NCBI GenBank assembly: GCA_010093815.1
Contig: ML996573.1
Length of the DNA stretch: 64,000 nucleotides
DNA from: Pseudovirgaria hyperparasitica
Taxonomy: Eukaryota
Direction: 5' to 3' (one strand)
In this document: positions 11,093 through 64,000 of the stretch, piece after piece
Layout of the letters: each line of letters starts with the position of its first letter
Numbering within the stretch: position 1 is the stretch's first letter
Position numbers and translations under genes: made by a program
The notes under the pieces: model-generated
What the model was told of the DNA's origin: nothing
Database searches by the model: none
Seen by the model: the letters and a program-made list of their open reading frames with translations, nothing else

Positions 11093-11892
11093 TATAAGAA
11101 TAGGGTTATTAGATAGTAGTATAGTTAGATAGAATAATAGAGTATATTCCGTCATAGAATAAATTACTACTAAACTCTTTTAGTAGAAATCTAAGAGTAT
11201 ATATATAAAGGGACGCCGATCTATTTAGTATATAACCGTTTACCGCCTATTATACTACCTCCTAACTAAGTTAGCTAAGATATATATAGATATAGTTATA
11301 CCTAAGACTAGATTCTAATAATTATCCCCTTTCTTTAGGAAGCTACCCTTAGTAACCTAGATTATTACCTATCTCTATATCCCTATTCTAAGTCTTATAA
11401 GACCTTAGTTATTCTCTATACTCTATCTTAGATATATATAGACTCTAGCTAATCTAAGATTTATATAAGCGTTTTTCTAATAAACTAGAGTTTATCTATT
11501 CTAAATTCTTATATAGATAGAATTACCTAATTAGGCCTAGCGTATCACGTAATATAATTAGATAAGCCTAGATACTATCTATATTAAAATCTTTTCTTAG
11601 AAATATTCCTTTCCTTAAAAAACTTTATAACTTATTATAGAGTTTTTTAGATTATTAGATATATTATTTAATTCTTATAGATATAGATTTATATAAATTT
11701 ACTATAATTTACTACGATTTATATAGCTTACTAATTTTCGTAGTATATATAGCTAGTAATAATAATAATCTATAAGAATCTATATAAATTAGTAATAATT
11801 ATAATATAGTTTTCTAAAACCTTAACGCTTAGAAGTAATTAGTATAGAAATAGATACCTTTAAATAATCCTTATCTTATCTATATTAATAAT

Positions 11893-12787
11893 ATAACGAA
11901 AGCTATTAATCTACTCTAACCTAGGCCGGGCTCTAATAATCTAACTATATATTATTATAGTTATTACTTTTTATTAGCGCGTGTGTATAGTAGTACTAAT
12001 TCTATAACTTATGGTACTTATATAACTAAGAAGCGCTATTATTTATAGGTATTTAAATAGGTTTAAGGAGCTTTACATAGATTTACTTATATTTATATAG
12101 GTTAATATTAGATAACACCTAAACGCTACTAATAAGGAGCGTAGTACTAATAATCGGAATTCTTTAGAAACGTCCTTCTATAAATTATATAAATATAGTA
12201 TACTTTACGGCTAGGAGTACGATTCTATAGAGATTTACGCTAATCTAGCTAAAGCTACTTTAGCTATAATTACCGCGATTACTAGGTAATATCGTTTTTC
12301 TTAAATTATTATAGATCCTTACTAATATATATTAATCTCTATAATAGTACTAAGATCTCTACTACTTTAGACATCTTTCCATATACTAGTAATATTAAAA
12401 TTCCTAGGAAAAAGTCTAGAGAAAAGGCTAAGATTCTATCCTTACGCGTACTAAAGAGCTATAAAGTTAGCGAAGATAACTCTAATCTAGAGGTTTCTAT
12501 ACTAAAGGTATATAGTTCTATACCGATCGTTAAATCTTTTCGCTAATTTATATAATTCCTAGCGTACCCGCGCTATTCTATCTCTCTCTACTCTAGTTCC
12601 TACCGCTCTATAGGTTTCTATAGAGAATTTTATAGCTATAAGGCGCGCTATATAGGGTTTATAGCGTCGGAATAAAAGGCTAGAGACTTATATTATAAAG
12701 CTCTATACTATACTAACTAAGAATTAGTAGAAGGAGTTAGATATAATTATTACGGTAATTAGTTCTTCTACTTCTACTCTAACTTAA
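11893..12787 (+). pseudogene. Antisense spliced accessory gene of Gypsy-1 (copy A allele)
   Basis: Same four-exon GT-AG structure as copy B; exon 2 is 185 nt in both; start RIP-mutated to ATA. Confidence 0.55.
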
Positions 12788-13086
12788 TTAGTTTAGATCT
12801 ATACTAATTAGTACTAGTATATTTCTTTTATCTAGCGTTTTTAGTTTTCGGTTTTAATTTTAAAGTAATCTTACTTCTTCTATATAGATTAGTACGAGTT
12901 TATATAGATCTATATAGATCTTTCTATTTTCTTTTAGTTTTCTTAATTTTATCTTTCTTTAGTAATAACTTCTTTAATCTCTTTAGTAATCTATACTAAT
13001 CTATACCGATTAGTATAGATCTTTAATGTCTATTTCTCTTAGTAAATTATTTTTCTAAGTCTCTTTTTTAGTTAAACTTTTTTAGA

Positions 13087-13164
13087 GTTCTAAGTTTAAA
13101 CTTTCTAAGGAAGTTCTAAGTTTAAACTTTCTAAGGGAGTTCTAAGTTTAAACTTTCTAAGGAA
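13087..13164. repeat. 26-bp tandem repeat x3 in Gypsy-1 copy A (single unit in copies B and C)
   Basis: GTTCTAAGTTTAAACTTTCTAAGG(A/G)A repeated three times. Confidence 0.9.
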
Positions 13165-15339
13165 GTTCCTTAATTCCTTAGAATATTTTAAAGATCTATA
13201 TCTCTTTTTTCTTCTTTCTTTTAGATGGCCGTTCTTAGTACTAAACTATACTAAAAAACGTTAAATTACTATACTTTAGTATAATTCTCTACGATTCCGC
13301 GGCTTTCTTTACTAATTACTACTTATACGCTAATATTACTACTTTACTAATATTTATTATAGGTTCCTAAGTATCTTTATTAGAATTATATTCTTTCTAA
13401 TAAATTTTATATAGCTATATACTATCTTTAGCGTGTTATTAGCTAAGTATCTACTTAACTTTATAGATATCTATACCTTCTTATATAACTACTTTATATA
13501 GTATCTATTTAGAAGAATCTAGTAATAATAAGATATAAAATAGCTTAAGAAGTATAATATAGAATATATTATATATCTTTAACGTAGGAGGGAGTTCTAA
13601 CTTATATATCTAGTTATTAATTACACGAGTAATCTTATATAGACCTATTATTATATAGTTAAGCTTCTTCTTTAGTCTAATACTATAAATATTCTTACTA
13701 TTTAGTAAAACTTTATATCTAATATTAAAGATTATAGGTTTTCTACCCTTATTATAGTACGATTTACTATAATCTATAGTATCTTATAGTAACTTTATAA
13801 CGCTTCTTTATATTTAGAATAGTTCTATTATAATTTCTATCGCTTTAATATTAGATTATTCTACTTTAAACTATATTCCTAAGAACTACGCGTTATAGTT
13901 CTAACTAAAGTTTACTTTAAATAGACTCACGTAGGTTAACGTATATTAGCTATTATTATATATAAATTCCGCGATATAGACTAACCTTACCTAGTTATTC
14001 TACTTATAGTTATAATATACGTATAAATATACTTTAACTATCTAATTCTACTACTCTATCTATCTATCTATTTATAGATAGAACGTAGTACTAAGTTTCT
14101 ACTTAATTCCTAGTATATAGTAGAAATCCTTCTAAAATTTAGATATTATCTACGGACCTCTATCTAAAACTATACTATTTAGTATACTATAGAGCCGAAC
14201 TACGTTATAGAGTAGTATATCTATAAGATCTAGTACTTAGATTATCTTCCTTATAGAGATATAGTATAATATCTTTATATATCTATCTAGAACTACGAGT
14301 AAACTATTATAAATATATCTAAAATACTTACTTAGGAGTAGATCTATAATAAAATCTATTAATAATTCCTTCTATACCTTCTTTAGTATAGGTAATAGTC
14401 TTAATTTACTATATAGTAAGTATCTATATACTTTTATATACTAGTAAAGGTTATATATTTTTATATAGTTCTTTATATATTTATAAAGACCTAGCTAGTT
14501 ATATATTCTTTAGATTAAATTAACCGTCCTTATAATACTAAAGTATTCTACTAACACGTAATTATACTATTCCCTTAAAATATTAATTTATAAGCCGTCT
14601 TCTAGTATATAGAGTCGGCCTTAGAAGTAGATTATATCTAATTATCGTTTCTACCTTAATAACTATAGCGGATCTATAGTACTTTCTTTTATACTTATAA
14701 CTTTCTTTACTAATATATCGGAATTCTAGGTAGATTTAATTAAGTCTTTAAGGGTTTTCTTAGTTTCTTAGATATTTATTTAGATTACTTAATACCCGCT
14801 TTAATTCCTACGGAGAATCGCCGAAAGTATCCTAGCTTCTAGTATTCTATTAGATAACTAGTCTTATAGTATCTATAGTATAGTATAGTCTAAATTATAC
14901 TAACTATCTATATTATTCTATAATAATTTCTTATAATCTTTACGCTACGATAGAGGATTAGCTTTATTCTCTCTTCTAGCTTTATATAAGATTTTAAAGT
15001 TAAATATTAATATCTACTTAGCCTAACGTACTTATTAATGATTAAGAACCTTAGTTAATATAAAGTAACGTAGATTTACGTAATCTAATAATAATTTAAT
15101 CTAATATATAGAACCTTCTAAATAATATCGCTATTACTTAAAACTCTTAATAATTATAAGTATATTAAGATCATTAATAAGTTAAGTTAAATTAGTTATA
15201 AAGTATACTATTTTCTATCTACGTATCCGGTTAGTTATATTTATATATCTAACCGGTTTGCTACTATCTATAGTAATTATATATAATATATACTACTACT
15301 ATAGCTATAATAAGGTGCCTAAATTTAAGAAAACCTACT

Positions 15340-17155
15340 ACTACCCTTAGTAGCTTTACGCGCGACGCTTAGCTAGGCACGGGTTTATATCTTTATAGAT
15401 ACTATAGCGTGATTAACCTACTACTAAACTAATATTAGAGAGTTCCTTAGCGGGCGTAATATACTTTATAGTTCTCTTAGAGTAACCTCGTTACTTAGCT
15501 AGTGGCTTAGTAACCTTAATATCTTAATTATTGTTCTAGTTAACTTATAGTATCTTACTAGTAGATAGTATACTAGTTAGTTTATATAAAGTTATTATAG
15601 TCTTATCTTACGCGCTATTAGAGTTATTATCTAGAAAAACTAGCTTTATAACCTTTTAGTACGTCTTATAATATAATAGTCTATTTACTAGTAGTTTAGT
15701 AAGATAAGGTTTATACTACTTATAACTATAAGTAGCCGTAGTAGCGTCCTCGAGTCTAAAGCTATAATAGTAGTAGATATTCTAGTAGTATTTAACTATT
15801 TACTTTAGTATTAACTCCTTAGTATAGAGCTTATATTTAGTATTATAGGCCCGATTTAGGTATTCCTATATATACTTACTAATTTCGTTATTAAACAACC
15901 TTATAGTATACTTACTATATTTATAAATTAACTTTATAGACTTAAGGAGGTTAACTACCTTCTCTAGAGGCCCTAGTCGCTTAATTAGCTTACCTATCTA
16001 GTATAAGTACTATTCTAGTTCCCTATAGTTAGCTAGAGGATAAGCTAACTTACTTAGGCTAGGTAGGAGACCTAGGCGGTTAACTAAATTAGACTACTTA
16101 GGCTTTTATTAAAATAACTAAGATAATATTTTTAAGGTAGTTAAGGTTATCTTAAGAACTAGGCGGAGCTATACTATAGTAAAATTACTATTAATTTCTT
16201 CCTTATCTAATAAGATAATAAGTCGTTTCTTTATAAGCCTAGGTTAGATAATAGAAGGCTCCTTCTTAATAGATGGTTTTTTAAAAACTAGACTTTCTAT
16301 AACTACTCTATTAAGGCCCTATATCTTTTTAGTAGTACTTACTTTCTACTAAAAATCCTAGAATAATATAATATATATATCTAGGTTACTCTTAACTTTA
16401 AAGAAGTCTTTAGTTATTAAAAGGGTATACTTAAATATAGGTTACTTATATCTATTTTTAACTAGGTTAATACCTTTATTACTAATAAGTTTATAGAGAG
16501 TTTTAGCTTACTTAAGAAGTTTTATATATAGGCTATTTCTAGTAGTTATTAGTACTAACGTTAAAAATTATATCTAGATAGCTACTATAGTTCTCTAATT
16601 AACTATATTTACCTTAATTAATAAAGTTATATTATATAGCTATTAGTAGATATTAGTAAGATAGACGTTGGTCTAGATTAATTAGTTAATAATTCTTTTA
16701 ACTATATTAAGGTTATATATATAGATATCTAATATAGTTACTTCTTTATTATCTAGCTAATCTTTCTATAGAATTATAATTAGGTTAAATCTTTATATAC
16801 TAGTTTTAAAATTAATTATATAACTTAATTTAGGCGTGAAAAGTAATAGGTTACTAATATTTAGTACTAAGCTACCTAAGTTTATTTACTACCTACTTAA
16901 CTAACTATATAGTAAGCTAAAGTCTAAATTATTAGTAGTAGTTAGTAATATAAGTAACGTAGTATATATATAACCTAATTGTTAAGATTATACTATAATT
17001 AGATTATCTACTAGACTCTTTATAGTTAGTTATACGGTACTTATAATCTTTAATAGTTACTTAGCTAAGATACCGCCGTCGTTATCTTCGTGTCTATATA
17101 CTAGGTTAATATCTAAGGGTACTACCTAAGTATAATGGTCGGTTTTATTTGCCAT
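15340..17155 (-). pseudogene. Accessory ~600-codon ORF of Gypsy-2 with a C3HC4 RING finger (15659-15775), RIP-inactivated
   Basis: One frame from ATG 17155. TAY codons (RIP of TGY/CAT) fall at C-x2-C-x11-C-x-H-x2-C-x2-C-x11-C-x2-C; de-RIP reading ...EDATTATCGHKWCKPCL...CKTCRK. The 3' end is approximate. Confidence 0.65.
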
Positions 17156-19152
17156 AAGTAGCTTATCTTTAATTACCTAGGGCTTAGGATAAGTCTTCTC
17201 TAGTATCTACTAATAATATAGTAGTAATATTACTACTCTACTAAGTATAATAATAATATTAGTGTTTTAACTAGGAAGAACTATATATATAGCCATATAT
17301 ATGCTCCACAGGCTCAGGCCTCCTCTAGTATTGGCTACTATATATACAAGAAAACCTCCTGTGATTGGCTCCCTAACTAGACCCTATTACTAACCTAACC
17401 TAGCCTAGTCTAAGTCCTCGAATCCCATTGGGTGATAAACTTACTTCTTATCCTTATATTAGGCTTTTATTACTATATTAGTACCGGCTCTTAATAACGC
17501 CCTAACCAACTATAGTAGGTATTACCTTTCTTGTGATTGGGTAGGTCGCTAGGCTAGGCCTAGTCTTTTATTCCTGTGTTACCGTGTTTTTTTCCTATCC
17601 ATGGGAATATAGCTTTGCGCCGGGCAGTAGTCATTGATTAAGATGACTAATGCTAGAGGGGGTGTATATCTAATAGGTCCATGCCTTAGCACTAACCCTA
17701 GCTAGGCCGAATTCGGAAATTGTTCTTCGGGGCTATGTAATCGTCTATAGGTAGGCGGGATACTTAATTAGGTATTGCCGTCTGTTTCGTGGTTACTAAG
17801 CCGGAGTAAGCGTAAGCTAAGCCGGATTAGGGTAGACAAGGCCCTAGTATATGGTGAAAATTCTATGATTCGAGCTAAGCTAGTTGTGGGTCTAGCCGCT
17901 CTAGGCGTCGCTCTACCACTTAAGGTGGCTTAGTAGGTGGCTATATTAGGTAATTCTCATCATGTAATGACGGTATAGTCATTTTCACATTACCTAATGG
18001 TCGCTTAGGACTAAGTAGTCATGTGACGGTAACCTTCACGTTACGTGCTCGCTTAGCCCCGTACACTTTTTAATAGAGCGTACGAAAACTAGTGTATAAT
18101 CTACTAAGTATAAATTAATTAAAGATAATTGCGACCTTATTATTTAAAATACTAGAGGCTCCGCGCGAGAGATATCTATTCTAAAACTATTCTTCTTTTA
18201 AGAATATAGCTAGCTAGTAGATACTAATCTCGCCCTTCCTTATAATCCGTTACTCTATTATTATAATAATTAGTAACTTTACTTAGTTAGACGGTTAGAC
18301 GTTTATAGACGGCTAAGTTATATAGTTCTCTAGAATATTAATAGAATAATCTATATAAAATAGCTATAAATTATATTTTAATAGGTGCTATTATTTAGTC
18401 GTAGAGAAATTACCTACTACTAGTCTATTACTAGAGATCTATATAGGTAGGGCTAATAATAAAGGGTATTCTATTACTATATATTCTAGAAGAATTAGTA
18501 GGAAAGCTTTTAATAAGCTAGGGAAATTCTTAGAATCTACCTAGTCTACTATTACGTTATATAGATCTATATAGAATAGTTAGTTAGCTAGTTTAATATT
18601 TACTTACGCCTAAATCTTTTCTATAGACTAATAGTAGTACTTTTTACCTACTTTTAGACGTAGGCGTAGGAGGATATTAGTTAGTTTAGATTAAGTATAA
18701 CTATTATAAGTCTACTAAATTAATATACTAGGTCTTATAAGGATAAAGCTAGTTATATATAGTAATTAGTTAATATTATAGAATATTTATAGGTTAGTAA
18801 CTATAAATAGTAGGCCGTATAGTTAGCTTAACTATAGTACTTATTTTTAGTTAATGGATCTAGGTCTAGTACTAACCTTTAAGTAAATAATATAAGAAAG
18901 TACTTAATAGTTATATATCTATAAAATGCTTTAGTAAATATATATATTATAATACTACTTATTATAATAGATATTAACGGCTCTCTACCTATAATAGCTA
19001 GAGGCGGATAGATATTATAACTTTAAGTAGTTATTAACCTAGCTAGGCTCCTAGTAGACTATTTCTATAAGCTTATCTAAGGTTATATTCCTTAACTAAG
19101 TCTAATAGAAGTATACTTTGCCAGATCTACCGACCAAATTCTAGACTATTAC

Positions 19153-22100
19153 TATAAGAATAGGGTTATTAGATAGTAGTATAGTTAGATAGAACAATGG
19201 GGTGTATTCTATTATAGAACGAATTACTACCGAACCCTTTTAGTAGGAATCCGAGAGTATATATATAAAGGGATACTAATCTATCTAGCACGTAACTATT
19301 TACCGCCCTTCACGTTACCTTCTAACTCTATTAGCTAAGGTATGTATAGATCGGGTTCTATCTAAGGCTAAGTTCTAATAATTATCCCTTCCCTCTAGGA
19401 AGCTACTCTTAGCGACCTAGGTCGTTATCTATCCCTATATCTCTATCCTAAGTCTTATAAGACCTTAGTCGTTCTCTACGCTTCGTCTTAGATATTTACT
19501 AATATTCGCCGATCTAAGATTTACATAAGCGTTTTCCTAATAAACTAGATTTTATCTATCTTAACTTCTTATATAGGTAAGATTGCCTAATTAGGCCTAG
19601 CGTATTACGTAATCTAATTAGGTAAGCCCGGGTACTATCTATATTAAAATCTTTTCTTAGAAATATTCCTTTCTTTAAAAAACTTCTTAACTCTTTATAG
19701 AGTTTTTTAGATTATTAGGTATATCACCCGATCCTTATAGACATAGATTTATATAGATTTACTATAATTTAGTACGATTTACGTAATTTACTAATTTTTA
19801 TACTATCCTTAGCTAGTAATAGTATAATTCGTAATAATCCGTATAAATTAGTAATAATTATAATATAGTTTCCTAAAATCTTAATACTCTAAAGTAATTA
19901 GCGCGGAAACAGGCGCCTTTAAATAATCTCTATCTTATATACGTTACTAATATGTCGAAAGCCATTAATCTACCCCGACCTAGGCCGGGCTCTAATAATC
20001 TAGCTATATATTATTATAGTTGTTACTTTCCGTCGTATATTACTTATAGTAGTACTAAATCTATAATATACGGTACTTATATAACTAAGAAGCGTTATTA
20101 CTTATAGGTATTTAAGTAAGTTCGAAGAACTTTACGTAGATTTACTTATATCGGTATAGATTACTACTAGGCCTCTAGTAACCCCTACTAATAAGGAGCG
20201 TGGTACTACTAATCGTAACGCCTTAGAGAAGGCTTTCTATAAGCTATATATCTAAGGTAAGAGTTACGCCTAGGAGTACGATTCTAATAAGATCTATAAG
20301 GATTTATTAGAATCTACTATAGCTATTATTACCGCGATTACTAGGTAATATCGTTTTTCTTAAATCGTTATAGATTCTTACTAATATATATTAATCTCTA
20401 TAATAGTACTAAAATCTCTACTACTTCGGACTTCTTTCTATATACCGGCGATATTAAAATTCCTAGAAAAGGTTCTAGTAAAAAGGCTAAGGTTCCTTCC
20501 TCGCGCGTGCTAAAGAGCTATAAATTTAGGGAAGATAGCTCTAATCTAGAAGTTTCTATACTAAAGGTATATGGTTCTATACCGATCGTTAAATCTTTTC
20601 GCTGATTTATATAATTCTTAGCGTGCCCACGCCGGTCCGTCCCTCTCCGTCCCGGGTCCCGCTACTCTATAGGTTTCTATAGAGGAGTTTATAGCTATAA
20701 GGCGCGCTATATAGAATTTATAGCGTTAGAACGAAAGGCTAGAGACTTATATTATAAAGCTCTATACTATACTAAATAAGAACTAGCGAAAGGAATTAGA
20801 TATAACCATCGCGGTAATTAGTACTTCTACTCCTACTCCGACTTAATCGGTTTAGATCTACACCAATCAGTACTAATATATCTCTTTTATCTAGCGTTTT
20901 TAGTTTTTCGGTTTTAATTTTAAAGCGATCTTGCTTCTTCTAGATAGATTAGTATGAGTTTATATAGATCTATATAGATCTTTATATTTTCTTTTAGCTT
21001 TCTTAATTTTATCTTTCTTTAATAATAACTTCTTTAATCTCTTTGGTAATCTATACCGATCTATACCGATCGGCACCGATTTTCGATGTCTATTTCTCTT
21101 AGTAAATCATTTTTCTAAGTCTCTTTTTTAGTTAAATTTTTTAAAGTTCTAAGTTTGAACTTTCTAAGGAAGTTCCTTAATTCCTTAGAATGTTTTAAAG
21201 ATCTATGTCTCTTTTACCTTCTTTCTTTTAGACGGCCGTCCTCGGCGCTAAACTATACTAAAAAATATTAAATCGCTATACTTTAGTATAATTCTCTATA
21301 ATTCCGCGGCTTCCTTTACTAATCGCTACTTATATACTAATATCGCTACTTTACTAATATTTATTATAGGTTCCTAAGTATCTTCGTTAGGATTATATCC
21401 TTTCTAACGAATCTTATATAGCTACGTGCTATCTTTAGCGCGTTACTAGCTAAGTATCTACTTAACTTTATAGATATCTATACCTTCTTACGTAACTACT
21501 TTATATAGTATCTATTCGGAATAATCTAGTAACGATAAGGCATGAAATGGCTCGAGAAGCGTAATATAGAATATATTATATATCTTTAACGTAGAAGGGA
21601 GTTATAACTCGTACGCCTAGTCATTGATTACACGAGTAATCTTATATAGACCTATTATTATATAGTTAAGCTTCTTCTTTGGCCTAATACTACGAATATT
21701 CTTACTATTTAGTAAAACTTTGTCCCTAATATTAAAGATTATAGGTTTTCTACCCTTATCATAGTGCGATTTACTATAATCTATAGTATCTTATAGTAAC
21801 TTTATAACGCTTCTTTACGTTTAGAATAGTTCTATAGTAATTTCTATTACTTTAACGTTAGGTCGTTCTACTTTAAACTAAGTCTCTAAGAACTATATAT
21901 TATGGTTCCGACCGAAGTTTACTTCGAACGGACTTATATAGGTTAACGTATATCGGCTATTATTATACACGAATTCCGCGACATAGACTAACCTTACCTA
22001 GTTATTCTACTTATAGTTATAATATACGCGTAAATATACCTCGACTATCTAGTTCTACCGCTCCGTCTATCTATCTATTTATAGGTAGAACGTAGTACTA

Positions 22101-44224: not shown

Positions 44225-44259
44225 GATTATTAGTTAAGGGCTACCCTTAACTAATAATC
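44225..44259. repeat. Shared palindrome copy (LINE 3' UTR)
   Basis: GATTATTAGTTAAGGG-cta-CCCTTAACTAATAATC. Confidence 0.95.
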
Positions 44260-50500: not shown

Positions 50501-53500
50501 AATACGCCTCGACTATCTAATTCTACCGCTCTATCTATCTATCTATTTATAGGTAGAACGTAGTACTAAGTTTCCGCTTAATTCCTAGCGTATAGTAGAA
50601 ATCCTTCTAAAATTTAGACGTTATCTACGGACCTCTATCTAAAACTATACCGTTTAGTATACTATGGAGCCGGACTACGTCACGGAGTAGTATATCTATA
50701 AGATCCGGTGCTTGGATCGTCTTCCTTATAGAGATATAGTATAATATCTTCGTAAATCTATCTAGAACTACAAGTAAACTATTATAAATATACCTAGAAT
50801 ACTTACTTAGGGGTAGATCTATGATGAAATCCATCGATAATTCCTTCCATGCCTCCTTTAGCATAGGTAATGGCCTTAATTTACTATATGGTAAGTGTCT
50901 ATATACTTTCGTATACTAGTAAACGTTATACGTTTTTACGTAGTCTTTTATATATTTATAAAGACCCGGCTAGTCGTACGTCCTTTAGATTAAATCGACC
51001 GTCCTTATAACGCCGAAGTGCCCTACTAACGCGTAATCGTGCTATTCCCTTAAAATATTAATTTATAAGCCGCCTTCTAGCACGTAGAGTCGGCCTTGGA
51101 AGTAGATCGTGTCTAATCGTCGTTTCTACCTTAATAACTACGGCGGATCTATAGCGCTTCCTTTTATACTTATAACTTTCTTTACTAATATATCGGAATT
51201 CTAGGTAGATTTAATTAAGTCTTTAAGGGTTTTCTTAGTTTCTTGGACGTTTATTTAGATTACTTAATACCCGCTCTAATTCCCGCAGAGAATCGCCGAA
51301 AGTGTCCTAGCTTCTAGCATTCTATTAGATAACTAGTCTTATAGTATCTAAAGTATAGTATAGTCTAACTTATACCGACTATCTACATCATTCTATAACA
51401 ATTTCTTATAATCTTCACGCCACGATAGAGAATTAGCTTTATTCTCTCTTCTAGCTTTATATAAGATTTTAAAGTTAAATATTAATATCTACTTAGCCTA
51501 ATATACTTATCGGCGATTAAGGACCTTAGTTAATATAAAGTAACATAGATTTATATAATCCGATAATAATTCAATCTAATATACGGAGCCTTCTAAATAA
51601 TATCGCTATTATTTAAAACTCTTAATAATTATAAGTAGTTCCTAGTCATGCGTGTTATAACGCGTCTCTATATCTACTATTTTATAGGAAAAGAAAGCGA
51701 CCGGGTGCCATTATATCTTATCTTTTATATCTTTATATAGTTAACTAATAATTCTAGTAATTACGAATTCTAACGCGTTAGTTTTAATCTAAATATACTT
51801 CTCGGGATCGAAATACCTAAGAATCGGCGTAGTTATAAAGTAATTCTTTAATAATCGGAACGTATCTCGCGCTTCCGGCGTTAACTATATCTCGACTAAC
51901 TTAGCTTTACGCTATGCTCGCCTATCTATAGAGATTTTACCGCCATTCTCTATAAGTTTATTAAGCAGCGCCGTAATTTATAAGAAGCCTATAATGAATT
52001 TATAATAATAGTTTACGAAACCTATGAATATTCTAATTTAATATATAGTAGTAGGTTCTGGCCATTCCATGATGGTCTTTACACGCTCCGGCTCTATTTT
52101 TAGGCCGCTATATATTATAATAAAGCCGAGAAACCCAACTTCTTGTTAGTGAAACTCGCATTTAGACAATTTTGCGTAGAGTTTATACTACCTTAGACGA
52201 TTTAGCACCGATTTCACGTGTTCTTTATAATCCTGCATGCTATTAGAGTAAATTAGTATATTATTAAGATAAACTACGCAAATCACGTTAAGTAATCCTA
52301 CGAGTATAGTATTAATATATCCTTAAAACGCTCCTAGCGTATTTATTAGCCCGAATGGCATAATAGTATACTTAAAATAACTATATCTAGTCTAAAATGC
52401 GGTTTTCCACTTATCTCCGCGATAAATTCGAAGCTAGTAATATATATCTCGTAAATCTAGCTTCGTAAAGTACTTTACCTTCGTTAATTAGTCTAAAGAT
52501 TTACTAACTAGCGGTAATAGATAACGATTCTTCTTAGTTACCGTATTTAGTATCTAATAGTCGACGTATAGACGTAAACTTCCGTCTTTCTTCTTCACGA
52601 AGAGAATAGGTACGCCGGCCGATAACGTACTATAACGTATCTAGCCTCTTTTAAGGTATTCTTTAATATATTTATAAAGAACTTTAAGTTCTAGTCTTAA
52701 AAGTAGGTAAAGTAGGCTATAAGGGACGTCTACTCCCTCTTCGAGCTTAATCTTTAGCTTATATAGCCNNNNNNNNNNTACGCCGGCCGATAACGTACTA
52801 TAACGTATCTAGCCTCTTTTAAGGTATTCTTTAATATATTTATAAAGAACTTTAAGTTCTAGTCTTAAAAGTAGGTAAAGTAGGCTATAAGGGACGTCTA
52901 CTCCCTCTTCGAGCTTAATCTTTAGCTTATATAGCCCGTGATTAGGGAGAAGTAACGCATCTCCTACCGAAAACATATCCGTATACTACGAATATACGTT
53001 AGGTAGCGTATCTTCGCCCTAATTATTACTATTATTCTCGTCTTTATCGACGATTAATAAGGACGTAAGATAGATTAGCGACGATCGGGTCCACACGGCA
53101 AGGTTCTATGCCTCCTTACTAATAGTTACGACTTACTAGTATAATTTACTATAGTATTATCGGAACGTTAATGTCTCCTTCTAAAAATCAAGGATAGAGT
53201 TTAGGCGTCTAAGCTAAGGCATCCCTAGAATCATATTCTATTAGCTAATATTAGCCACGATAAATTTATTAGATATCTACTATTTTATTATCTTTAAGTT
53301 ATGAACTTCATAATTCATTATAGCTTTACCTAAAGTTCTAACTTTATATCTATTAACTACGATAGTTCGGCTAACTTTACTAAGATCGTATAATAATCTA
53401 TACTCCTTTACGAGAATCGATAAAATATAGTTATCTTCTATACTAGTATCTACGAGGGCCTATATAGTTTTATTACCATTTACTATAGATAATAATACTT

Positions 53501-55172
53501 TTAGTAATATTAGGTCTTTACTCGCCGGAAGGCGCTATAGCTCCTTCTAAGTATATATAATTTAGCTAAGGACGTGGTTAGGTCTCGTGTACTAGCCTAT
53601 TCTTTTTTTAGATTCTTATAGTTAGGCGAAATATATTCTATTTCTCTATACTTATAGTAACGAAGTACGCTATAATCCTACTATTTTACGATAGGCGTTA
53701 TATTTAAGCCTATACCTTATCCTTTTCCGCGTTAAGAAGCACCGCCTTAATTATTTCGGTATCCTCTTAACGCGTTTCTACCCCGATTTACGCTCTTCTA
53801 GCGCTAATCATAGTAAGGTTACTCTTAATTAAACGTATTCGATCGACCTCGTTTCTAACCCGTATAGAGTTCGTCGGTTTTACCTAGAGAGCCGCGTTCC
53901 TTAAGGATATAGTAGTATTTATTAGCTTTCTCCTCTAATTTATATAGATAGTTAAAACTTAATAATACTATTTCTAGTCTTTCGCGGATTAACGGAAGTA
54001 GTACTTTATAAAACTAGAATATACGAATATTTTTCTATAGCGTAGGGATATTATTCTATAGGTTTTAGAGGTATTATAGTAGTTAAGTAGGTGTCTAGTT
54101 CGGTCGTTATACCACGCTTCTTAACTTAGATAGTGCCTTTCTTTCACGTTCTCTATCCGTTCCGAGGGTGTTTAGTATAAATATAGCTAAATATTCCTAG
54201 GTTATCATAGATAGTAGCTATACTTCCTTCTATCTATCCTATTAATCGCGGGATTATAAGCCTAGGTATCGTTCTCCGAACGAAATATATTATACTTTAG
54301 TAGAAAAGAGTAGAGGGTTATCAAGGAAGTACTTTTCATAGTCTCTCTTCTAGTCTTTCTACTCCTTTTGGTTCTTCCCTATAAATATAGTCGGGTCTTT
54401 AGGTTTTAGTATACCTAGGGAAGGAGTAGAGTAAATCGGTAACGAAGCGGCCGGGTATATAGTGGATTATCATAACTCTAATGGTAGGTAAACTAATTCC
54501 GCCTGAATTAGTATAGGAAGTCGTCCACCTACTATCGTTCGGCGTAGTTCTTTAAGAGACTCCTTAAGTTCTCGTCTCTTTGCGAGGAGTTTCACGCGTT
54601 CTATCTATTCTTTAAGGGTTTGAATCTCTCGAGTCTAATTCGCGACGTATTCCTAAAGTTTAGTAATAGTTTATTATAATACCTTGCGTGGCTCCGCCAC
54701 GACTCGTTATCCGACTTTATATTATTAGAAGTTACTTAGCGTATCTACCATTTCTTCGTCTAAAAGCTCCGTGATTTAGTCTAATATTTCTACTTCTCGG
54801 TTAGAAACGGCCGGGATTAATACCGATTATAGAGGATCCCTATTATTTAATATAGTATTACTTATCCCTATAGTAGATCGTGTTAACCTTCTCGGTTCTA
54901 GTTAGACTATCTTAACTATAGTACTATATAGGGAGTAATTCGAATGTAAGAATAGGGTTATTAGATAGTAGTATAGTTAGATAGAATAATAGGGTGTATT
55001 CTATTATAGAACGAATTACTACTAAACCCTTTCGGTAGGAATCCGAGAGTATATATATAAAGGGACGCCGATCTATCTAGTATATAACTATTTACCGCCC
55101 TTCACGTTACCTCCTAACCCTGTTAGCTAAGGTATATATAGGTCGGGTCCTACCTAAGGCTAAGTCCTAACA
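47516..55172 (-). mobile_element. Gypsy-1 chromovirus copy C, full length; LTRs 47516-47743 and 54945-55172; TSD ATACG
   Basis: 228-bp LTR pair TGTAAG...CTAACA; ATACG at 47511-47515 and 55173-55177. Chromodomain YEV..IL....YKI.WKGY.P.EDTWEP at ~49835-49950. Two N-gaps. Confidence 0.95.
48315..49314 (+). pseudogene. Antisense spliced accessory gene of Gypsy-1 (copy C allele; includes an assembly gap and duplication)
   Basis: ATG at 48315; same intron positions as copy B; donor GTATGT intact at 48930. Confidence 0.6.
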
Positions 55173-56676
55173 ATACGTTTACCTATATAATTAGAAGTAT
55201 ATCTTAGTCTCTTATTAGGTGCTAGGGAATATATAGACCTATATATTTATTCCTCTAAGACGCGACTATCCTCGTACGGCGGCGGCCTTAGTAATTCCTT
55301 AGGGCTGTTCTATTATTAGCTTTCTCGGGACGGTTTACTATTCCTAACCGCTTCCTCGTAAGGAGGTAGTCTATAGTAGTAGTATTATAGTAAAGAGAGG
55401 AACGGTAGTAGGTCGTATCGTTTATAGCTACCTTACTCCCTTTATCCGGATTAAGTAGATATATTTAGTAACCTATTTACGTTTCGCGCACGTAGCTAAC
55501 TACGACGGGTGCTTACCGTCGTAGTTAGAGTACTTCGCCGTGTCCCTATCCCTCTAGCCCTCTCCTCGTGTCCCGTAGGGGTACTTCTAGGTACTATATT
55601 CTTATCGATACTATCTATACCTAGTCTTTTAGGAGTACCGCTATGCTATATACCCGTATCCCTAATAGTTAAAGCACTATATTATCGCCTATACTCTATC
55701 CTATGGTTCCGCTATAAGAAGCTTCCCTTCCGCTAGGAATCCCTCTTATATAATTTAATACGCGAGGGCGGGGTCCTTAAGCTCTACTATTATAGTAGAG
55801 TGTACCTTTAATCTAGTTTTAATCCCTTATATATTCTTCTACCATGCTCTTATAATCTTAATCCCTAGGTATTTTCGCTCGTTTAACTATTCTATCCGCG
55901 TGATATCCTCTTCTCTAATAACCTATCCACTTACGGGTATAGAGTATACCTATATCGGGTATATGGCTACCCTAATAGAGGCGCCTAGGAAGATACTACT
56001 AATCGCGTTCGGATTACGCGAGATAGTCTACTACGCGATATTCGTTATCATAGTAAGTACTACTCCTCCTAGCGTAAGTTTAGCGACGATAACGTTTAAC
56101 TATATTCCCTTTTATTTATTAATCTTACTTACTATATCCTTTAGGGATACTTACTAGACCTATACTAGGGTGTCCTTATCCTAGATTACGATATATATAC
56201 TATATACCGCGTCACCGGTCCGGGGGGCCTATGGTATAGCCTCTAGTATTACTACTATTTATACCCATATACTAGGGCGCTTACCTTAAGTGAGTTCCTC
56301 CTAGATTCTATATAGGCTAGCCTCTATTCGGTCGAGCCTACCCTCCGGTCCTCCTAGTTATATCTTCTTCTTCTCCTCTATAATTCCCTTTAGGTTCCGG
56401 ATAAGGTCCTAGAATATATATAGAAGGGTCTTCTAGCCCTCTCCGGCTTCCTTCTCTATATATACTATCTAGTAGTTAATGTAATCTAGGAGGGTTTCCC
56501 CTCTTAGGGTCACCTTTATTCCGTCTATCTATAGCGGTATACGCCTTTGGGTGTGTTCTACGTTTTAAATAGGTATATGGTTGCCCTTAGTAATATCGCT
56601 ATATGGCCTTTTCTATCGTACCGGTAGGGGTATATCCGGTATATGCCGGGGTATGTCGGTGCCTAAGGCCGCCATA

Positions 56677-56709: not shown

Positions 56710-59700
56710 AGGGGGTTAGTATATCGGCGTTCTAGTAGCGTAGTCCGTGCCTCTATCTCCGTAAGGATTTTAAGAGGGTATATATATATCTTTACACGGC
56801 GATAATATCTTAGTTTTAACGCTGTACGTACGTGCGTGTAGTAGTAGTTAGTATACTCGGTGTACTCTATTAATTAAGGTGTATATCTCGCTATATTACC
56901 CCGAATGGATTAAGTTAGCCTCTTAGGGATGTAAAAGAAGTTAAAGTAGTTAGTATAGGTAGTATAGTAGGGAGGAGATTGCTTAAACTAGCGATTATCC
57001 TAGTATTACTATATTAACTAAGATAGCCTAGTAAAGAGGACTTAGTATTTAAAGTATACGAACTAGTGGATACTAACTTTTAGCTACTACTTTATTAAGA
57101 TTATTAATAAGTTAAGTTAAATTAGTTATAAAGTATACTATTTTCTATCTATATATCCGGTTAGTTATATTTATACATCCAACTAGTTTACTACTACCTA
57201 TAGTAATTATATATAATATGTACTACTACTATAGCTATAACAAAGTAGTTTCTAGTCATGTATATTATAACGCGTCTCTATATCTACTATTTTATAGGAA
57301 AAGAAGGTAACTAGATACTATTATACCTTATCTTTTATATCCTTATATAGTTAACTAATAATTCTAGTAATTATAAATTCTAATATATTAGTTTTAACCT
57401 AAATATACTTCTTAGAATTAAAATACCTAAGAATTAGTATAGTTATAAAGTAATTCTTTAATAATTAGAATATATCTTACGCTTCTAGCGTTAACTATAT
57501 CTTAACTAACTTAGCTTTACGCTATACTTACCTATCTATAGAGATTTTACTACTATTCTTAGTAAGTTTATAAGCGGCGCTATAATTTATAAGAAGCCTA
57601 TAATAAATTTATAATAATAGTTTATAAAATCTATAAACGTTCTAATTTAATATATAGTAGTAGATTATAGCTATTCTATAATAGTCTTTATACGCTCTAG
57701 CTCTATTTTTAGACCGCTATATATTATAATAAAGCTAAGAAATCTAACTTCTTATTAGTAAAACTTATACTTAGATAATTTTATATAGAGCTTATACTAC
57801 CTTAGATAATTTAGTATTAATTTTATATATTCTTTGTAATTCTATATACTATTAGAGTAAATTAGTATATTATTAAGATAAACTATATAGATTACGTTAA
57901 GTAATTCTATAAGTATAATATTAATATATTCTTAAAACGCTTCTAGTGTATTTATTAGTCTAAACGGTATAATAGTATACTTAAAATAACTATATCTAGT
58001 CCGAAATGCGGTTTTCTACTTATCTCTATAACGAATTTAAAGCTAGTAATATATATCTTATAAATCTAGCTTCGTAAAGTACTTTACCTTTATTAATTAC
58101 CCTAAAGATTTACTAACTAGTAGTAATAGATAACGATTCTTCTTAGTTACTATATTTAGTATCTAATAGTTAACGTATAGATATAAACTTCCGTCTTTCT
58201 TCTTTATAAAGAGAATAGATATACTAGCTAATAACGTGCTATAATATATCTAGCCTTTTCTAAGGTATTCTTTAATATATTTTTAAAGAACTTTAAGTTC
58301 TAGTCTTAAAAGTAGGTAAAGTAGACTATAAGAGACGTTTACTCTCTCTTTAAGCTTAATCTTTAGCTTATATAGTCTATAATTAGGGAGAAGTAACGTA
58401 TCTCCTACTAAAAATATATCTATATACTATAAATATATATTAGATAGCGTATCTTTACTCTAATTATTACTATTATCCTTATCTTTATTAATAATTAATA
58501 GGAATATAAGATAGATTAGTAATAATTAAGTCCGTATAGTAAGGTTCTATATCTTCTTACTAATAGTTATAACTTACTAGTATAATTTACTATAATATTA
58601 ATAGAACGTTAATATCTCCTTCTAAAAATCAAGGATAGGGTTTAGGTATTTAAGCTAAGGCATCCCTAGAATTATATTCTATTAGCTAATATTAGCTATA
58701 ATAAATTTATTAGATATCTACTATTTTATTATCTTTAAGTTATAAACTTCGTAACTTATTATAGCTTTATCTAAAGTTCTAACTTTATATCTATTAACTA
58801 TAATAGTTTAGCTAACTTTACTAAGATTATATAATAATCTATACTCCTTTATAAGGATTAATAAAATATAGTTATCTTCTATACTAGTATCTATAAGGGC
58901 CTATATAGTTTTATTACTATTTACTATAGGTAATAATACTCTTAGTAATATTAGATCTTTACTTACTAGGAGGCGCTATAGCTCCTTCTAAATATATATA
59001 ATTTAGCTAAGAACGCGGTTAGATCTCGCGTACTAGCCTATTCTTTTTTTAGATTCTTATAGTTTAATAAAATATATTCTATTTCTCTATACTTCTAGTA
59101 ATAAAGTACGCTATAATCCTACTATTTTATAATAGGCGTTATATTTAAGTCTATATCTTATCCTTTTCTATATTAAGAAGTACTACCTTAATTATTTTAG
59201 TATCCTCTTAACGTGTTTCTACTCTAATTTATACTCTTCTAGTACTAATTATAGTAAGGTTACTCTTAATTAAATATATTTAATTAATCTTATTTCTAAC
59301 CCGTATAGGGTTTATTAGTTTTACCTAGAGAGCCGCGTTCCTTAAGGATATAGTAGTATTTATTAGCTTTCTCCTCTAATTTATATAGATAGTTAAAACT
59401 TAATAATACTATTTCTAGTCTTTCGTGGATTAATAGAAGTAGTACTTTATAAAACTAGAATATATAGATATTTTTCTATAGTATAGAGATATTATTCTAT
59501 AGGTTTTAAAGGTATTATAGTAGTTAAGTACGTATCTAGTTTATTTATTATACTATACTTCTTAACTTAGATAGTGCCTTTCTTTTACGTTCTCCGTCCG
59601 TTCTAAGAGTATTTAGTATAAATATAGCTAGATATTTCTAGGTTATTATAGATAGTAGCTATACTTTCTTCTATCTATTCTATTAATTATAGAATTATAA

Positions 59701-60639
59701 GTCTAGGTATTATTCTCTAAATAAAATATATTATACTTTAGTAGAAAAGAGTAGAGGGTTATTAAGGAAGTACTTTTTATAGTCTCTCTTCTAGTCTTTC
59801 TACTCCTTTTAGTTCTTCCCTATAAATATAGTTAGGTCTTTAGATTTTAGTATACCTAGGGAAGAAGTAGAGTAAATTAGTAATAAAGCGGCCGGGAGTA
59901 CGGTAGATTATTATAACTCTAGTAGTAGGTAAACTAATTCCGCCTAAATTAGTATAGGAAGTTAACTACCTATTATCGTTTGGCGTAGTTCTTTAAGAGA
60001 CTATAATAAACCTTCCCTAATAAGGATGCGGCTTATCCCTAAAGTAGTCCGTTCCATAGAGTGTCCCGGCTTTTCTAAAGATAAAGGTACTTAGAAGGCT
60101 TAGAGGAGTGTAAGTAGGTTTATAGTAAGTATTAATAGAGTATAAATAGTAACTAGCTAGTAGGCGAGTAAAGTAGTAATTATATCGGTATAAGTTTAAA
60201 TTAATTACTATAGAACTATTTCTAGAGATCGGGTCTAAAGGGTCTATATAGTTCTACTAAGGTTCTCTAATTAGAATGCTTATTCTAAGCGTTTAGTACG
60301 TTACTTAGAATACTAATATTCTATTTCTAATTACCTAGTAGACTACTTAGAATACCTATTCTAAGTACCTATAATTAGCTCTCTCTATAGGTGTCTATCT
60401 CGGCCTTAGGTTACTATCTAAGGCTATCTATCGTATTATAGGCACCTCTTCTACGTACTATACTATTTCTTATACTACTCGTACTAGAGTCTACGTATCC
60501 CCCTATGGCTCTAGCTAGTAATTTATTATATAATGCCCCTTCTAAGGTACTTCGTCCCGAAGTACTTCCGTAGCTACTTATAAGTGGAGAGTTATTCTAA
60601 CTTCCTTCGGTAAGAAGCCCTTCTTTCTTTTCTTCCGTT

Positions 60640-61281
60640 ATACCTAGAGTTATAAAATTAGTTAAGCCTTCTAAATCTAATCCGGCGAAACGGAGAGTTA
60701 CTTTATCTATTTTAATTAATTATAAAGGGGACGAAATACCTTTTCCTTACTTATTTTATAAGAAACACGGCTTAACCTATAGGGCGGTATTCGTAAAGTC
60801 CGATAAGTATTTAGAGTATATTTATTAGGGTCGTTCGGTAAGCGAGTATAGGATTAAGGCTTTAAGTAAGTTATCTTATAAGTTCTCTTTCTTTTAGTTA
60901 GAACTAGTAAGTAATATTTCTAGATAAGAAGGTTCGTTCTAAAAAGGCTTATCTTAAGCTAGAGAAAGAATATACGGCCGCTACTTAGCGAAAAGCTTAG
61001 TAGAACGCTTAGACCGCCTTTACGCGTCTAGAGCGTCTAGAGAAATAGTAGAAGCTATTAGAGCGTCGTCGAAATAATATACTTTATTAGAATCTATTAG
61101 TAATAGATCTTAAGAAGAAGGAGGAGCGACTTAAATAATAATAGAGAGTTACCATTAAGGAGGTTCCGAATTCTCCCTTAGGTTTTAATAATTCTTAGCT
61201 TAGTATAGAGGACTAGGCGAATCTAGGTTTATTTAATAGAACTTCTATAATAGTTACTAGTAGTTCGTTAAATATTCCCTA
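60640..61281 (+). pseudogene. Antisense 2-exon accessory gene of Gypsy-4: Zn2Cys6-like cluster plus coiled coil; intron 60866-60923
   Basis: TAY codons at 60748, 60757, 60778, 60808, 60817, 60847 give C-x2-C-x6-C-x9-C-x2-C-x9-C. A GTAAGT...TTTCTAG phase-1 intron joins this to RLERLEKQQKLLERRR. The 3' end is approximate. Confidence 0.65.
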
Positions 61282-62587
61282 GGTTCCTAAGTATTTAATT
61301 CATGTCCGTAGCCCTTCTACTTAATTAGATACTCTAATATTTTATTACTAATTCTAGATTCTAGAATCTTTTTAACTTCGAATTCTTCGTCTATAGCTTT
61401 AATATTAGTTTCGACTTTTATATTACGTGGTGCTAGTTCTAGTAATAAGATATAAAATACCGGGTATATCCTTATATTCTAAGGTAAAGATAGTTTATAA
61501 TTAACTTCTAAAATTTTTCATTTTATTTAGAAAGGTCTAATCTTCTTAAAGTCTAGTTTACTATTTAGTTATTATATCTTAATATTTTTCCGTGTAAGGA
61601 ATACTAGGTCTCCCCCCCTTAGAGATAGTCCCTTTATTCTCTTTTAGTTTATATATTTTACTATTCTTTTATTTATAAAGGAAAGTTTAGTTTATAGCTC
61701 TAAGTATAGTTTATATAGTTATTCTATCTTAATCTTTACTTTCGGTATAGATTATTCTAGTTTATAATTATAGCTAGCTATGGGGTTAAATCCGTAGTTC
61801 GCATAGAACGGTAAGGTTTTAGTTATTAAGGTTATCACGCTATTATAGGCGAATTAAGCTAGTAGTAGTAGTTCTACCTAATTATCTTATTATTTATTAA
61901 TATAGTATTATAGGTATTATTCTAGTATTCTATTTAGGATCTCCGTTTATCTATCCGTCTATAGATAATAGGCTATCGATAGTCGGTAGCTCGTTCCGAG
62001 CTATCGTACTAGGCTTTTCTAAAAGTTTAATATAAAGAGCTTATCTCTATTAGATATAATACTATTAGGTAAACCGTGGTTTACTATAACTACTCGTAGG
62101 AATATGTAGACCATTTCTTCTACGTCTATATTCTTTTAATAGAGTATAAAGTAGGCGTACTTCGTGAGTTTATTAACTACTACTAGTATAGTATCGTACT
62201 ATACTCGCGAGACTAGTTCTCTTAAGAGTGGTAGATCTATTATAAAATCTATAGAGATTATTTCCTAAGCATATAATGGTAGGGGAATTAGTTAGAGTTC
62301 TCCGTATAGTTTATATCTATTAGATTAGCTTTTATTATATAGAACGTAGTTCTATATAACTTCCTTAATAACTTATCTTTCCTTATAAGTCGTATAGTAT
62401 CTCTTAAATCTTTTATAAGTTTTTATTTCTTCTTAATGTCTATGCATTAGATCTTTATAGAATTCTTTAATAAAATAGTAGGCCTTATCTCTAGGGATTA
62501 TGCTTCTTCCCTCGGGGTCTTTAAGTATAAATTCTTTTTATATTACTATAATATATCGCGTTAGTCTAAGGTTTCTATCTTTAGTAA

Positions 62588-62753
62588 TGTTAGGCACGTA
62601 AGGAGCACGTGGCCTGCTAGTTGATTATACATGTGTGCAGCAGTCGTATATAAGTAGTGTGCTCCACCCTTGAAGTAGTAGCTTTAAGATTCGGTCCTTT
62701 TGGTGTAGTTGGTTGGTGCGTGGAGCCCGCCTCCTTATAAGTAACCTCTAACA
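62588..62753. mobile_element. 166-bp solo LTR of a further family inserted in Gypsy-4 pol
   Basis: TGTTAG...CTAACA inverted ends, internal TATATAA, many intact TG/CA dinucleotides unlike the flanks; interrupts the RNase H-integrase linker. Confidence 0.7.
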
Positions 62754-64000
62754 TGGCCTATTCTATAGTAGGTTCTTTTCGCTCATATTCTACTTATCGG
62801 CTAAGGGCGTTAGCTCTTCCGTTTTCGGATCCTTTATAGTATATAATTTAGATATTAAATTCCGTGAGAAGCTCGTACCAACTAATTTATTTCTTTTATA
62901 GTTTCTTCGTTATAGTAAAGGTAGTTAGGTTTTTATAGTTAGTATAGACTTTTACTATATAGCCTAATCTATAGAGATAGCTTCTCTATTTCTTAAGGTA
63001 TTTAATTATAGCGTAAAGTTCTTTTTTATAGATTAGCTAGTTTATTTCTAATCCTCGAAACTTTCGGGAGTGAAATACTATAGAATATCTTTTCCCTTAT
63101 TTATCTATCTAGGTTAACTACCCTCTAATAGCGAATTCTAATACGTCTATCTCGACTTTATAGGGTTTTTCTATTTAATATATCTTTAATACGGGTTCGG
63201 TTATAATAGACTCTTTTAACTATTAAAATACTTATTCTTACTTTAGTCTCTATTTAAATATTATATTTTTCTTTATAAGCTCGTGTAGTAGGGCCGTTTT
63301 TATAGAATAGTTATATATGAATTTTCTATAAAAGTTCATGAATCCGGTAAATCCTTAGATTTCCTTAACTGTCTTAGGTTACTTCTAGTTTTTAATAGCC
63401 TTAATTTTCTTTAGGTCTATTCGTATTTCTCTAGGTATAATCTTAAATTCTAAAAATATAACTTTCTATATATAGAAGACACTCTTCTTTAATTCTACTA
63501 GTAGATTCGCTATCCGTAATTTCTAAAGTACCTTATATATGTATTCTCTATACTCTAATAGGTTTCTTAAGTAAATTAATATATCGTCTAGATAGACTAT
63601 TATAAAGTAGTTAAGGTATTCTCTTAGCACGTCGTTAATTAGTACTTAGAATATAGCTAGTATATTAGTTAGCCTAAATAGTATTACTAGATATTCGTAG
63701 TAGCTATATCGAGTCTAAAAGGCTATTTTCTATTTATCTTCTTCTACTATACGTACGAGGTTATAGACTCCTTATAAGTCTATTATAGTAAAGTACTAAG
63801 CCTCCACGAGTTAGTCCTATAATTTATTAATTTAGGGTAGAGGGTATCTATTTTTAACGGTAATATTATTTAAGTATTAATAGTCTATATAGGGTCATTT
63901 ACTTCTATCTTTCTTTAGTATAAAGAGTATCGGATATTCTATAGGTGATTTAGAGGGTTGGATATATTCTTTTACTTCTATTTTCTCGATATATTATCGC

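Follow-up and report, generated by a model that had tools for sequence, protein, structure and literature searches.

The 64,000-nucleotide stretch of contig ML996573.1 from the fungus Pseudovirgaria hyperparasitica (GenBank assembly GCA_010093815.1), hereafter the window, contains four families of Ty3/Gypsy retrotransposons (A, B, C, and D) that have been killed by repeat-induced point mutation (RIP). In each of the four, the interval between the end of pol and the 3′ long terminal repeat (LTR), which we refer to as the slot, exceeds the length that a bare polypurine tract needs. In family C, the slot holds a real third gene on the sense strand. This gene, open reading frame 3 (ORF3), is a dead gene for what is predicted, from conserved motifs and a modeled fold, to be a protein of ~900 aa with a C-terminal Fe(II)/2-oxoglutarate (2OG) dioxygenase domain of the PhyH clan, and it belongs to the element rather than to the host. 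A first-pass annotation, made from the letters of the window, had proposed that all four families carry an accessory gene of a nuclear-regulator type in this position. Its map of the nest was essentially right, with slots of ~0.6, 1.8–1.9, 3.7–3.9, and 3.9 kb in families D, A, B, and C, respectively. Its genes fared unequally, as described below.

A third gene in family C

The evidence for ORF3 comes from homology that reads through the RIP damage. In an exhaustive HMMER search, the plus-strand frame from 38100 to 41289 had 512 homologues at E ≤ 1e-3, 69 of them at E ≤ 1e-30. The best homologue is a protein of 911 aa (E 1.3e-68, 33% identity), and typical relatives are 880–1000 aa long and are unnamed “hypothetical proteins” of metagenomes and run assemblies. 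A profile made from 25 homologues matches family C at 38331–40919 in a single unbroken frame, covering positions 38–866 of 905 at E 4e-108, and has no second match anywhere in the window outside family C. A word-index protein search with the RIP-mutated frame gave no match, and neither did Pfam or PDB sequence searches. Because the exhaustive search then returned 512 homologues, the word-index miss was a problem of sensitivity.

The damage itself has the direction expected of RIP. We defined conserved columns as those with the same residue in ≥60% of the 25 homologues (n = 198), and the window copy has this residue in 115 of them. Fifteen conserved columns are stops in the window copy, at positions where the homologues have Trp (9), Gln (4), Tyr (1), or Phe (1). 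All five conserved Cys read Tyr, three of the six conserved His read Tyr, Asp has become Asn five times, and Glu has become Lys three times. These stops and residue changes are C-to-T and G-to-A damage, and therefore RIP accounts for the invisibility of the gene to ORF finding, as the first-pass annotation had supposed. Its further claim, that the family C slot encodes a dioxygenase, is borne out by the homologues, the single-frame profile match, the motifs, and the predicted fold.

Predicted product of ORF3

Three motifs, FRHID, LPHGS, and RRTMLPW, are invariant across the homologues and together make up the HxD...H signature plus an Arg. The iron triad and the 2OG arginine (H617, D619, H722, and R732 of P0006) are invariant or nearly so in sets of both 25 and 95 homologues. 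In the window copy, the same sites read FKYLD, IIHGA, and GRYMILPX, with the first His changed to Tyr as RIP predicts. An AlphaFold2 model of the C-terminal domain, based on an alignment of 95 sequences, has a predicted local distance difference test score (pLDDT) of 91.4. When this model was compared with the PDB using Foldseek, there were 61 matches at E ≤ 1e-3, with modest template modeling scores of 0.26–0.55. Among the matches listed, all those that bear a functional name are Fe(II)/2OG oxygenases (YbiU, EvdO1, proline hydroxylase H11, GriE, SnoN, FtmOx1, EctD, and SptF), and the top of the list is occupied by DUF1479 entries (7twe, 6akz, 2csg, and 2dbn), which are annotated merely as putative oxidoreductase or hypothetical protein. 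The modeled fold is a double-stranded beta-helix and appears closest to PhyH-type enzymes.

Some results weigh against placing ORF3 in this clan. The Pfam family PhyH (PF05721) is found weakly in 4 of 15 homologues, one of which just passes the threshold (22.5 vs. 22 bits), and the other 11 have no match; PDB sequence searches with the family C frame and with the homologue profile found no relative of solved structure. The window copy has no Pfam match. The catalytic activity of ORF3 is a prediction from motifs and fold.

The model of the full-length protein (pLDDT 72) begins with a helical N-terminal domain and a disordered linker, which are followed by a small CxC...CxxH region and then by the catalytic domain. 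In the 25 homologues, the CxC...(43)...CxxH arrangement upstream of the catalytic domain (residues 370–419 of P0006) is invariant or nearly so, and the window at ~39470–39620 reads YXY...YYKHY in this region. This region may be a small zinc site.

ORF3 as part of the element

We scanned metagenome contigs for relatives of ORF3, which gave 346 stretches encoding them, and kept 80 loci. One of these loci, L010, is an intact element with 279-bp LTRs at 99.6% identity and with all ORFs open on one strand: gag-protease at 471–3512, reverse transcriptase-RNaseH-integrase at 3497–7102, and ORF3 at 7456–10419. The order of gag, pol, and ORF3 is the same in L011 and L060. Across the loci with at least 4.5 kb of upstream sequence, a Gypsy pol lies upstream of ORF3 on the same strand in 22 of 36, and this proportion is 17 of 19 for loci that are low in G+C content (GC) and RIP-like, and 5 of 17 for loci of normal GC.

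The first-pass annotation had pointed to un-RIPped relatives as the place where open frames and purifying selection should be sought. For family C, the proposal withstood this check. In the relatives of this family, ORF3 is open, and its ratio of nonsynonymous to synonymous substitution rates (dN/dS) between L010 and L011 is 0.083, as compared to 0.086 for pol and 0.197 for gag, values that come from one pair only. The LTR pairs of L010 and L011 are nearly identical or identical. Family C and L010 are distant relatives (pol 36% and ORF3 31% identical), and the gag-pol-ORF3 layout is kept among elements whose pol is only 34–36% identical; since such distant elements share one layout, the layout is old. 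We conclude that ORF3 is a gene of the element because intact relatives with near-identical LTRs keep the order of gag, pol, and ORF3, and because ORF3 is constrained as pol is.

On the other side, 12 of the 17 normal-GC loci have an ORF3 homologue and no Gypsy pol upstream. We also built a catalytic-domain tree of 20 rows, representing the window and 18 of the 80 loci; it excludes RIP-like loci, as well as L041b, whose sequence was too short. In this tree, the Gypsy-linked copies are not resolved as one clade, and three changes of label are needed. Both results count against a simple history in which ORF3 is a Gypsy gene only. The tree also contains well-supported clades of copies without Gypsy pol, and the branch leading to the window copy is very long. 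From these clades and from the loci without pol, it follows that the protein family also lives outside Gypsy elements. A single origin of the Gypsy-linked copies may still be compatible with the tree.

Loci without a full Gypsy pol frequently show another arrangement, in which a different long ORF lies upstream of the ORF3 homologue on the same strand (L005, 359–4195; L012, 3197–7060; L020, 5010–8141). These upstream ORFs encode 1044–1288 aa and have no Pfam family. In L020, the upstream ORF partly resembles ORF3, and a short integrase-like fragment lies between the two. The upstream ORFs could mark another kind of carrier, or they could be tandem paralogues.

A further group of loci from one metagenome sample group (L040, L054–L056, L065, L068, and L073; GC 0.36–0.41) consists of RIP-like nests. 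These nests hold ORF3-bearing Gypsy elements together with chromoviruses like those of families A and D (reverse transcriptase 33–41% identical to A and D), so that this set of families is also found together in another RIP-active fungus.

Candidate genes in families D, A, and B

For the slots of families D and A, the first-pass annotation had described a Zn2Cys6-like and a Cys-cluster protein, respectively, each with a coiled coil. Gal4-type Zn2Cys6 clusters have the spacing CX2CX6CX5-12CX2CX6-8C. In family D, a candidate frame on the strand opposite to pol contains, at 60748–60849, the pattern Y-x2-Y-x6-Y-x9-Y-x2-Y-x9-Y, followed by a heptad-like stretch rich in Leu, Ile, Val, and charged residues. 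The pattern and the tail described for D are thus present, but all six cluster positions are Tyr, and no homologue was found in the searches reported below; Cys is not readable in the RIP-mutated copy, and with a spacing of 2-6-9-2-9 the last spacer is one residue beyond the Zn2Cys6 range. The antisense frame has stops at 8 of 167 codons, as compared to 14–22 in the other five frames.

In family A, both described features also exist. A Cys/His cluster, in which one real Cys survives, lies at 20015–20101 of copy 2 in the frame of 19385 and is common to all three copies. A coiled-coil-like heptad stretch (VSIEEFIAIRRAI...) lies ~570 nt downstream, at ~20670–20802, in the frame of 19386. The best antisense frame of copy 2 has 39 stops in 584 codons, vs. 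45–72 in the others. We evaluated the zinc-cluster pattern, with Tyr allowed for Cys, in six frames of 57 kb and in 100 second-order Markov simulations. It occurred eight times, as compared to 2.4 ± 1.7 in the simulations, of which one in 100 reached eight. Three of the eight matches are in the D and A slots (copies 1 and 2 of A), that is, in two independent families. TGA counts were useless for the choice of frame, because TGA is depleted everywhere.

Several observations speak against genes in these two slots. The cluster and the heptad stretch of A are in different frames, so that an intron or a frameshift must be assumed. In copy 3, two of the six “Cys” positions read Arg and His, which are older states given the C-to-T direction of RIP, and therefore the A cluster is not a canonical Zn2Cys6 and is at most a different Cys/His cluster. 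When the three A copies are partly de-RIPped, every frame has 41–76 stops, the best having 41 in ~705 codons. Tyr makes up 8.8% of six-frame residues, and readings of Tyr for Cys are therefore cheap. A word-index protein search found no homologue of the D frame or of a profile combining all three copies of A. In six-frame translations of the 80 metagenome loci, the D, A, and B frames likewise had no match by blastp, hmmsearch, or phmmer. Pfam, with stops read as X, had no match in any slot frame of the window, and blastp detected no similarity between the D and A slot frames. The metagenome loci include A/D-like elements that are themselves RIP-like, and since RIP has acted on both sides, these homologue searches are weakened. 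Taken together, antisense genes in the D and A slots are plausible. By analogy with the published gene brtn, the most likely occupant of both slots would be a small antisense gene of that kind, with a Cys cluster followed by a coiled coil.

Over ~2.6 kb of the family B slot, two mirror frames have 64–65 stops in 878 codons and the other four have 106–138, a contrast stronger than that for ORF3 of family C. From this contrast, a long ORF probably once stood there. In this slot, Pfam was blank in all six frames, and the ORF3 profile had no match. The RING-HC (C3HC4) protein that had been read at 15659–15835 is rejected, as the 59 residues of this stretch include 15 Tyr and neither Cys nor His. 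With Tyr allowed, the C3HC4 pattern is at chance level in the window (5 observed vs. 4.0 ± 2.4 simulated, with at least 5 in 31 of 100 simulations).

Anatomy of the nest and its surroundings

We mapped the nest by DNA self-alignment and by protein-level comparisons with stops read as X (Table 1). LTR pairs were found for families A, B, and C, and the 5′ part of D is beyond the end of the window. Family A has LTRs of ~230 bp and a pol that ends in a chromodomain which can still be read, and the pol of its copy 2 is homologous to that of D. Family B is recognized by a 154-bp direct repeat (92% identity) that encloses a block, with A sequence resuming across the block; it inserted into A copy 1, splitting it, and later became itself the target of A copy 2, C, and A copy 3. 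Pfam finds nothing in the pol of family B (reverse transcriptase to integrase, 29500–26562), which is recognized solely by its blastp similarity to the pol of A and D. The LTR pair of family C has 93.5% identity over 368 bp. Pfam finds RT_RNaseH and then Integrase_H2C2 in one frame, and homology to the intact L010 places gag at 31282–33753 and pol at 34102–37263 (36% identity). In the spacer that separates the pol homology from ORF3, stops are flat over 37420–38330, with 23–26 per 303 codons in all six frames, which provides a non-coding-like control. Family D truncates A copy 1 on the 5′ side, with the junction at 60002/60003. Its pol has the Pfam domains RVT_1, RT_RNaseH, SH3_Tf2-1, and Chromo, with the chromodomain ending at ~61238, and the slot is ~0.6 kb provided that the candidate polypurine tract is what its composition suggests.

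Table 1. Features of the window, in order of position
Feature	Position	Strand	Remarks
Host gene, two BIR domains	1473–2696	−	open, not RIP-mutated; at edge of RIP block
Host gene, Tam41/Mmp37-type mitochondrial phosphatidate cytidylyltransferase	3270–4829	+	E 3.9e-120; open, not RIP-mutated; at edge of RIP block
Ty1/Copia element	7400–11089	+	RIP-mutated; Pfam RVT_2 (E 1.5e-31) and retroviral SH3-like domain
Family A chromovirus, copy 1	11093–15162 and 57247–60002	−	split; self-alignment
Family B element	15163–57246	−	LTRs 15163–15316 and 57093–57246
Family B slot	15317 to ~19050, plus 26410–26562	−	pol to 3′ LTR, ~3.7–3.9 kb
Family B slot, coding-like periodicity	15317–17950	not assigned	~870 codons; long ORF probable
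Family A chromovirus, copy 2	19155–26409	−	self-alignment
Family A polypurine tract	19385–19396
Family A slot	19385 to ~21200–21315	−	pol to 3′ LTR, ~1.8–1.9 kb
Family A slot, candidate antisense gene	19925–20870	+ (opposite pol)	three collinear copies
Family C element	30224–41657	+	RIP-mutated; LTRs 30224–30591 and 41290–41657
Family C slot	37264–41289	+	pol to 3′ LTR, ~3.9 kb
Family C spacer	37264–38330	+	end of pol homology to ORF3; non-coding-like control
Family C ORF3	38331–40919	+	dead gene, predicted PhyH-clan Fe(II)/2OG dioxygenase; between pol and 3′ LTR
Family A chromovirus, copy 3	47516–55174	−	self-alignment
Family D chromovirus	60003–64000	−	5′ part beyond window end
Family D candidate polypurine tract	60618–60636	−	19-nt pyrimidine run on plus strand; putative
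Family D slot, candidate antisense gene	60640–61143	+ (opposite pol)	basic stretch, Zn2Cys6-like cluster, coiled-coil-like stretch

RIP has mutated the elements of the nest. The first 6500 bases of the window are a host stretch of ordinary genes, with a GC of 0.48 and dinucleotide indices of a non-RIP kind, and from ~7 kb onward GC falls to 0.24–0.40. TpA/ApT is 1.5–1.9 in every element as compared to 0.82 in the host part, and (CpA+TpG)/(ApC+GpT) is 0.04–0.27 in the elements vs. 1.21 in the host part. When copies of the family A slot are compared, 321 of 393 variable columns are C/T or A/G.

The reverse transcriptase of the Copia element is truncated at 11092 by A copy 1, and therefore the whole Gypsy nest is located inside this Copia element. 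By position, the 5.9 kb at 41658–47515 are interior to family B, which would then have 8.5 kb between its 5′ LTR and its reverse transcriptase, far beyond what gag and protease need. GC reaches 0.40 in this segment, and two plus-strand frames (45355–45837 and 46022–46411; 160 and 129 aa) are free of stops and are not protein-like. None of the gag and pol sequences in our comparisons is homologous to this segment, which possibly consists of further unrecognized nested fragments. Three runs of exactly 10 N lie within family A copies (22815–22824, 49030–49039, and 52769–52778). Two of the three are bordered by exact or near-exact duplications of ~95–160 bp (for example, 52611–52768 is 100% identical to 52779–52936), and the runs have the look of scaffolding gaps at which the ends of contigs overlap, rather than of a biological feature.

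Comparison with known systems

Additional genes between pol and the 3′ LTR have been described in other elements. In Boty-like Ty3/Gypsy elements of Botrytis cinerea, brtn is an additional antisense gene (Zhao et al. 2011, Virology 417:248, as cited in PMC8365987). The likeness to our D and A candidates is one of position, as all are on the strand opposite to gag-pol and between pol and the 3′ LTR. Unlike brtn, the copies in the window are dead, all putative Cys but one read Tyr, and D and A are dissimilar to each other. Further Botrytis BcGypsy families have additional ORFs taken from the B05.10 annotation (PMC8365987), and so there too, fungal Gypsy families differ in the extra ORF that they carry.

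The closest parallel to ORF3 comes from plants, where extra ORFs of LTR retrotransposons are an established topic (PMC7264820). In Ty3/Gypsy elements of the orchid Phalaenopsis, the additional ORF is described as an AlkB-type 2OG-dependent dioxygenase, an N6-methyladenosine RNA demethylase with activity in vitro (PMC9289625). The orchid element and family C both have a sense-strand extra ORF after the polyprotein, for an Fe(II)/2OG oxygenase with HxD...H ligands. The orchid enzyme is AlkB/ALKBH5-like (PF13532) and is found in plant elements of 25 kb, whereas the fungal ORF3 product is predicted to be of the PhyH clan, with ~900 aa and a long N-terminal part.

A full-text search of the literature, which did not cover supplements, found no paper that reports an oxygenase of the 2OG or PhyH type in a Gypsy element of fungi. 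ORF3 is thus new as regards enzyme clan and kingdom, and accessory ORFs in Gypsy elements were already known. The first-pass annotation had suggested that this layer of accessory genes may be overlooked, which is not wholly so, since brtn, the other Botrytis Gypsy ORFs, and the orchid oxygenase are in print. TET/JBP dioxygenase genes are linked to the Kyakuja-Dileera-Zisupton DNA transposons of basidiomycetes. Like family C, these are cases of a 2OG oxygenase on a fungal mobile element, but the oxygenase family is another one and the carriers are DNA transposons rather than LTR elements.

Weighing the explanations

The explanation that fits best, in our judgment, is that family C carried a sense-strand dioxygenase gene, that families D and A carried antisense genes similar to brtn, and that family B carried some long ORF. 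We consider this combination probable, with considerable room for doubt. It is possible, though we lean against it, that only family C has a real accessory gene, and that in the other families, non-coding DNA of a U3-proximal or regulatory nature, made rich in Tyr readings and mutated by RIP, resembles genes by chance. The missing homologues and Pfam matches for the A, D, and B frames would then be expected, as would the cheapness of Tyr, the RING pattern at chance level, and the location of the two A features in two frames. However, chance readings do not readily account for the enrichment of the zinc-cluster-like pattern, which lies antisense to pol in the slots of the related families D and A, or for the periodicity of stops in the slots of D, A, and most of all B as compared to the flat control in family C. 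In addition, a published antisense gene, brtn, occupies this very position in Boty-like elements. Even so, the proposal that all four families carry an accessory gene is proven for C only, with A and D resting on patterns and frame periodicity. “Nuclear-regulator-type” is also unfit as a name for the sole proven gene, which is a predicted PhyH-clan oxygenase. The roles in self-activation or anti-silencing that the first-pass annotation suggested are conjecture, as is its E3 ligase.

For ORF3 itself, it is very improbable that a host gene came to lie inside family C by accident, through nested insertion, transduction, or misassembly. Free-standing members of the protein family do exist, as the normal-GC loci without Gypsy pol demonstrate, but such an accident is at odds with the order of gag, pol, ORF3, and LTR in L010, L011, and L060, with pol lying upstream in nearly all RIP-like low-GC loci, and with a layout shared between elements as distant as C and L010. 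ORF3 is also RIP-mutated like the rest of C. A hitch-hiking passenger, whose constraint would come from host benefit or recent capture and which would have no role in the element cycle, deserves more consideration, and we still think it rather unlikely. The well-supported clades of free-standing homologues are in keeping with a passenger, and most PhyH-clan enzymes of solved structure have small molecules or amino acids as their substrates, to judge from the titles of PDB entries. Neither the pol-level dN/dS of ORF3 between copies with identical or near-identical LTR pairs nor the persistence of the layout at such low pol identity is what a passenger would lead one to expect. A role of ORF3 in the element remains part of the explanation we prefer.

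We infer the expression and the targets of ORF3, and likewise that the A, D, and B frames were genes. ORF3 probably goes back to one or a few captures of a host-type gene, because the protein family occurs away from Gypsy pol too. The enzyme would be made from the transcript of the element, and it may hydroxylate or demethylate a protein or a nucleic-acid-linked target that would matter for replication of the element or for escape from host control. The product of the D and A candidates, if they were genes, might be a dimeric zinc-binding, and possibly DNA-binding, protein. A more far-reaching reading is that ascomycete Ty3/Gypsy lineages routinely carry lineage-specific slot genes hidden by RIP, with the ORF3 dioxygenase serving in counter-silencing by acting on chromatin, RNA, or a host factor. 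Its gene set would include a sense PhyH-clan dioxygenase in an old lineage, an antisense zinc-cluster/coiled-coil gene in chromoviruses, and a third large gene in B. We put this forward as speculation and think it unlikely in this full form.

LTR retrotransposons are usually taken to need gag and pol only. An oxygenase that is constrained like the polymerase implies a so far undescribed enzymatic step in the life of the element or in its conflict with the host. The only comparable published case that we found is the orchid AlkB-type RNA demethylase (PMC9289625). For the brtn-type antisense arrangement, the window adds two candidate cases, by analogy and short of proof. In RIP-mutated genomes, genes such as ORF3 are invisible to ORF finders, and they are recoverable by profile searches that read through stops.

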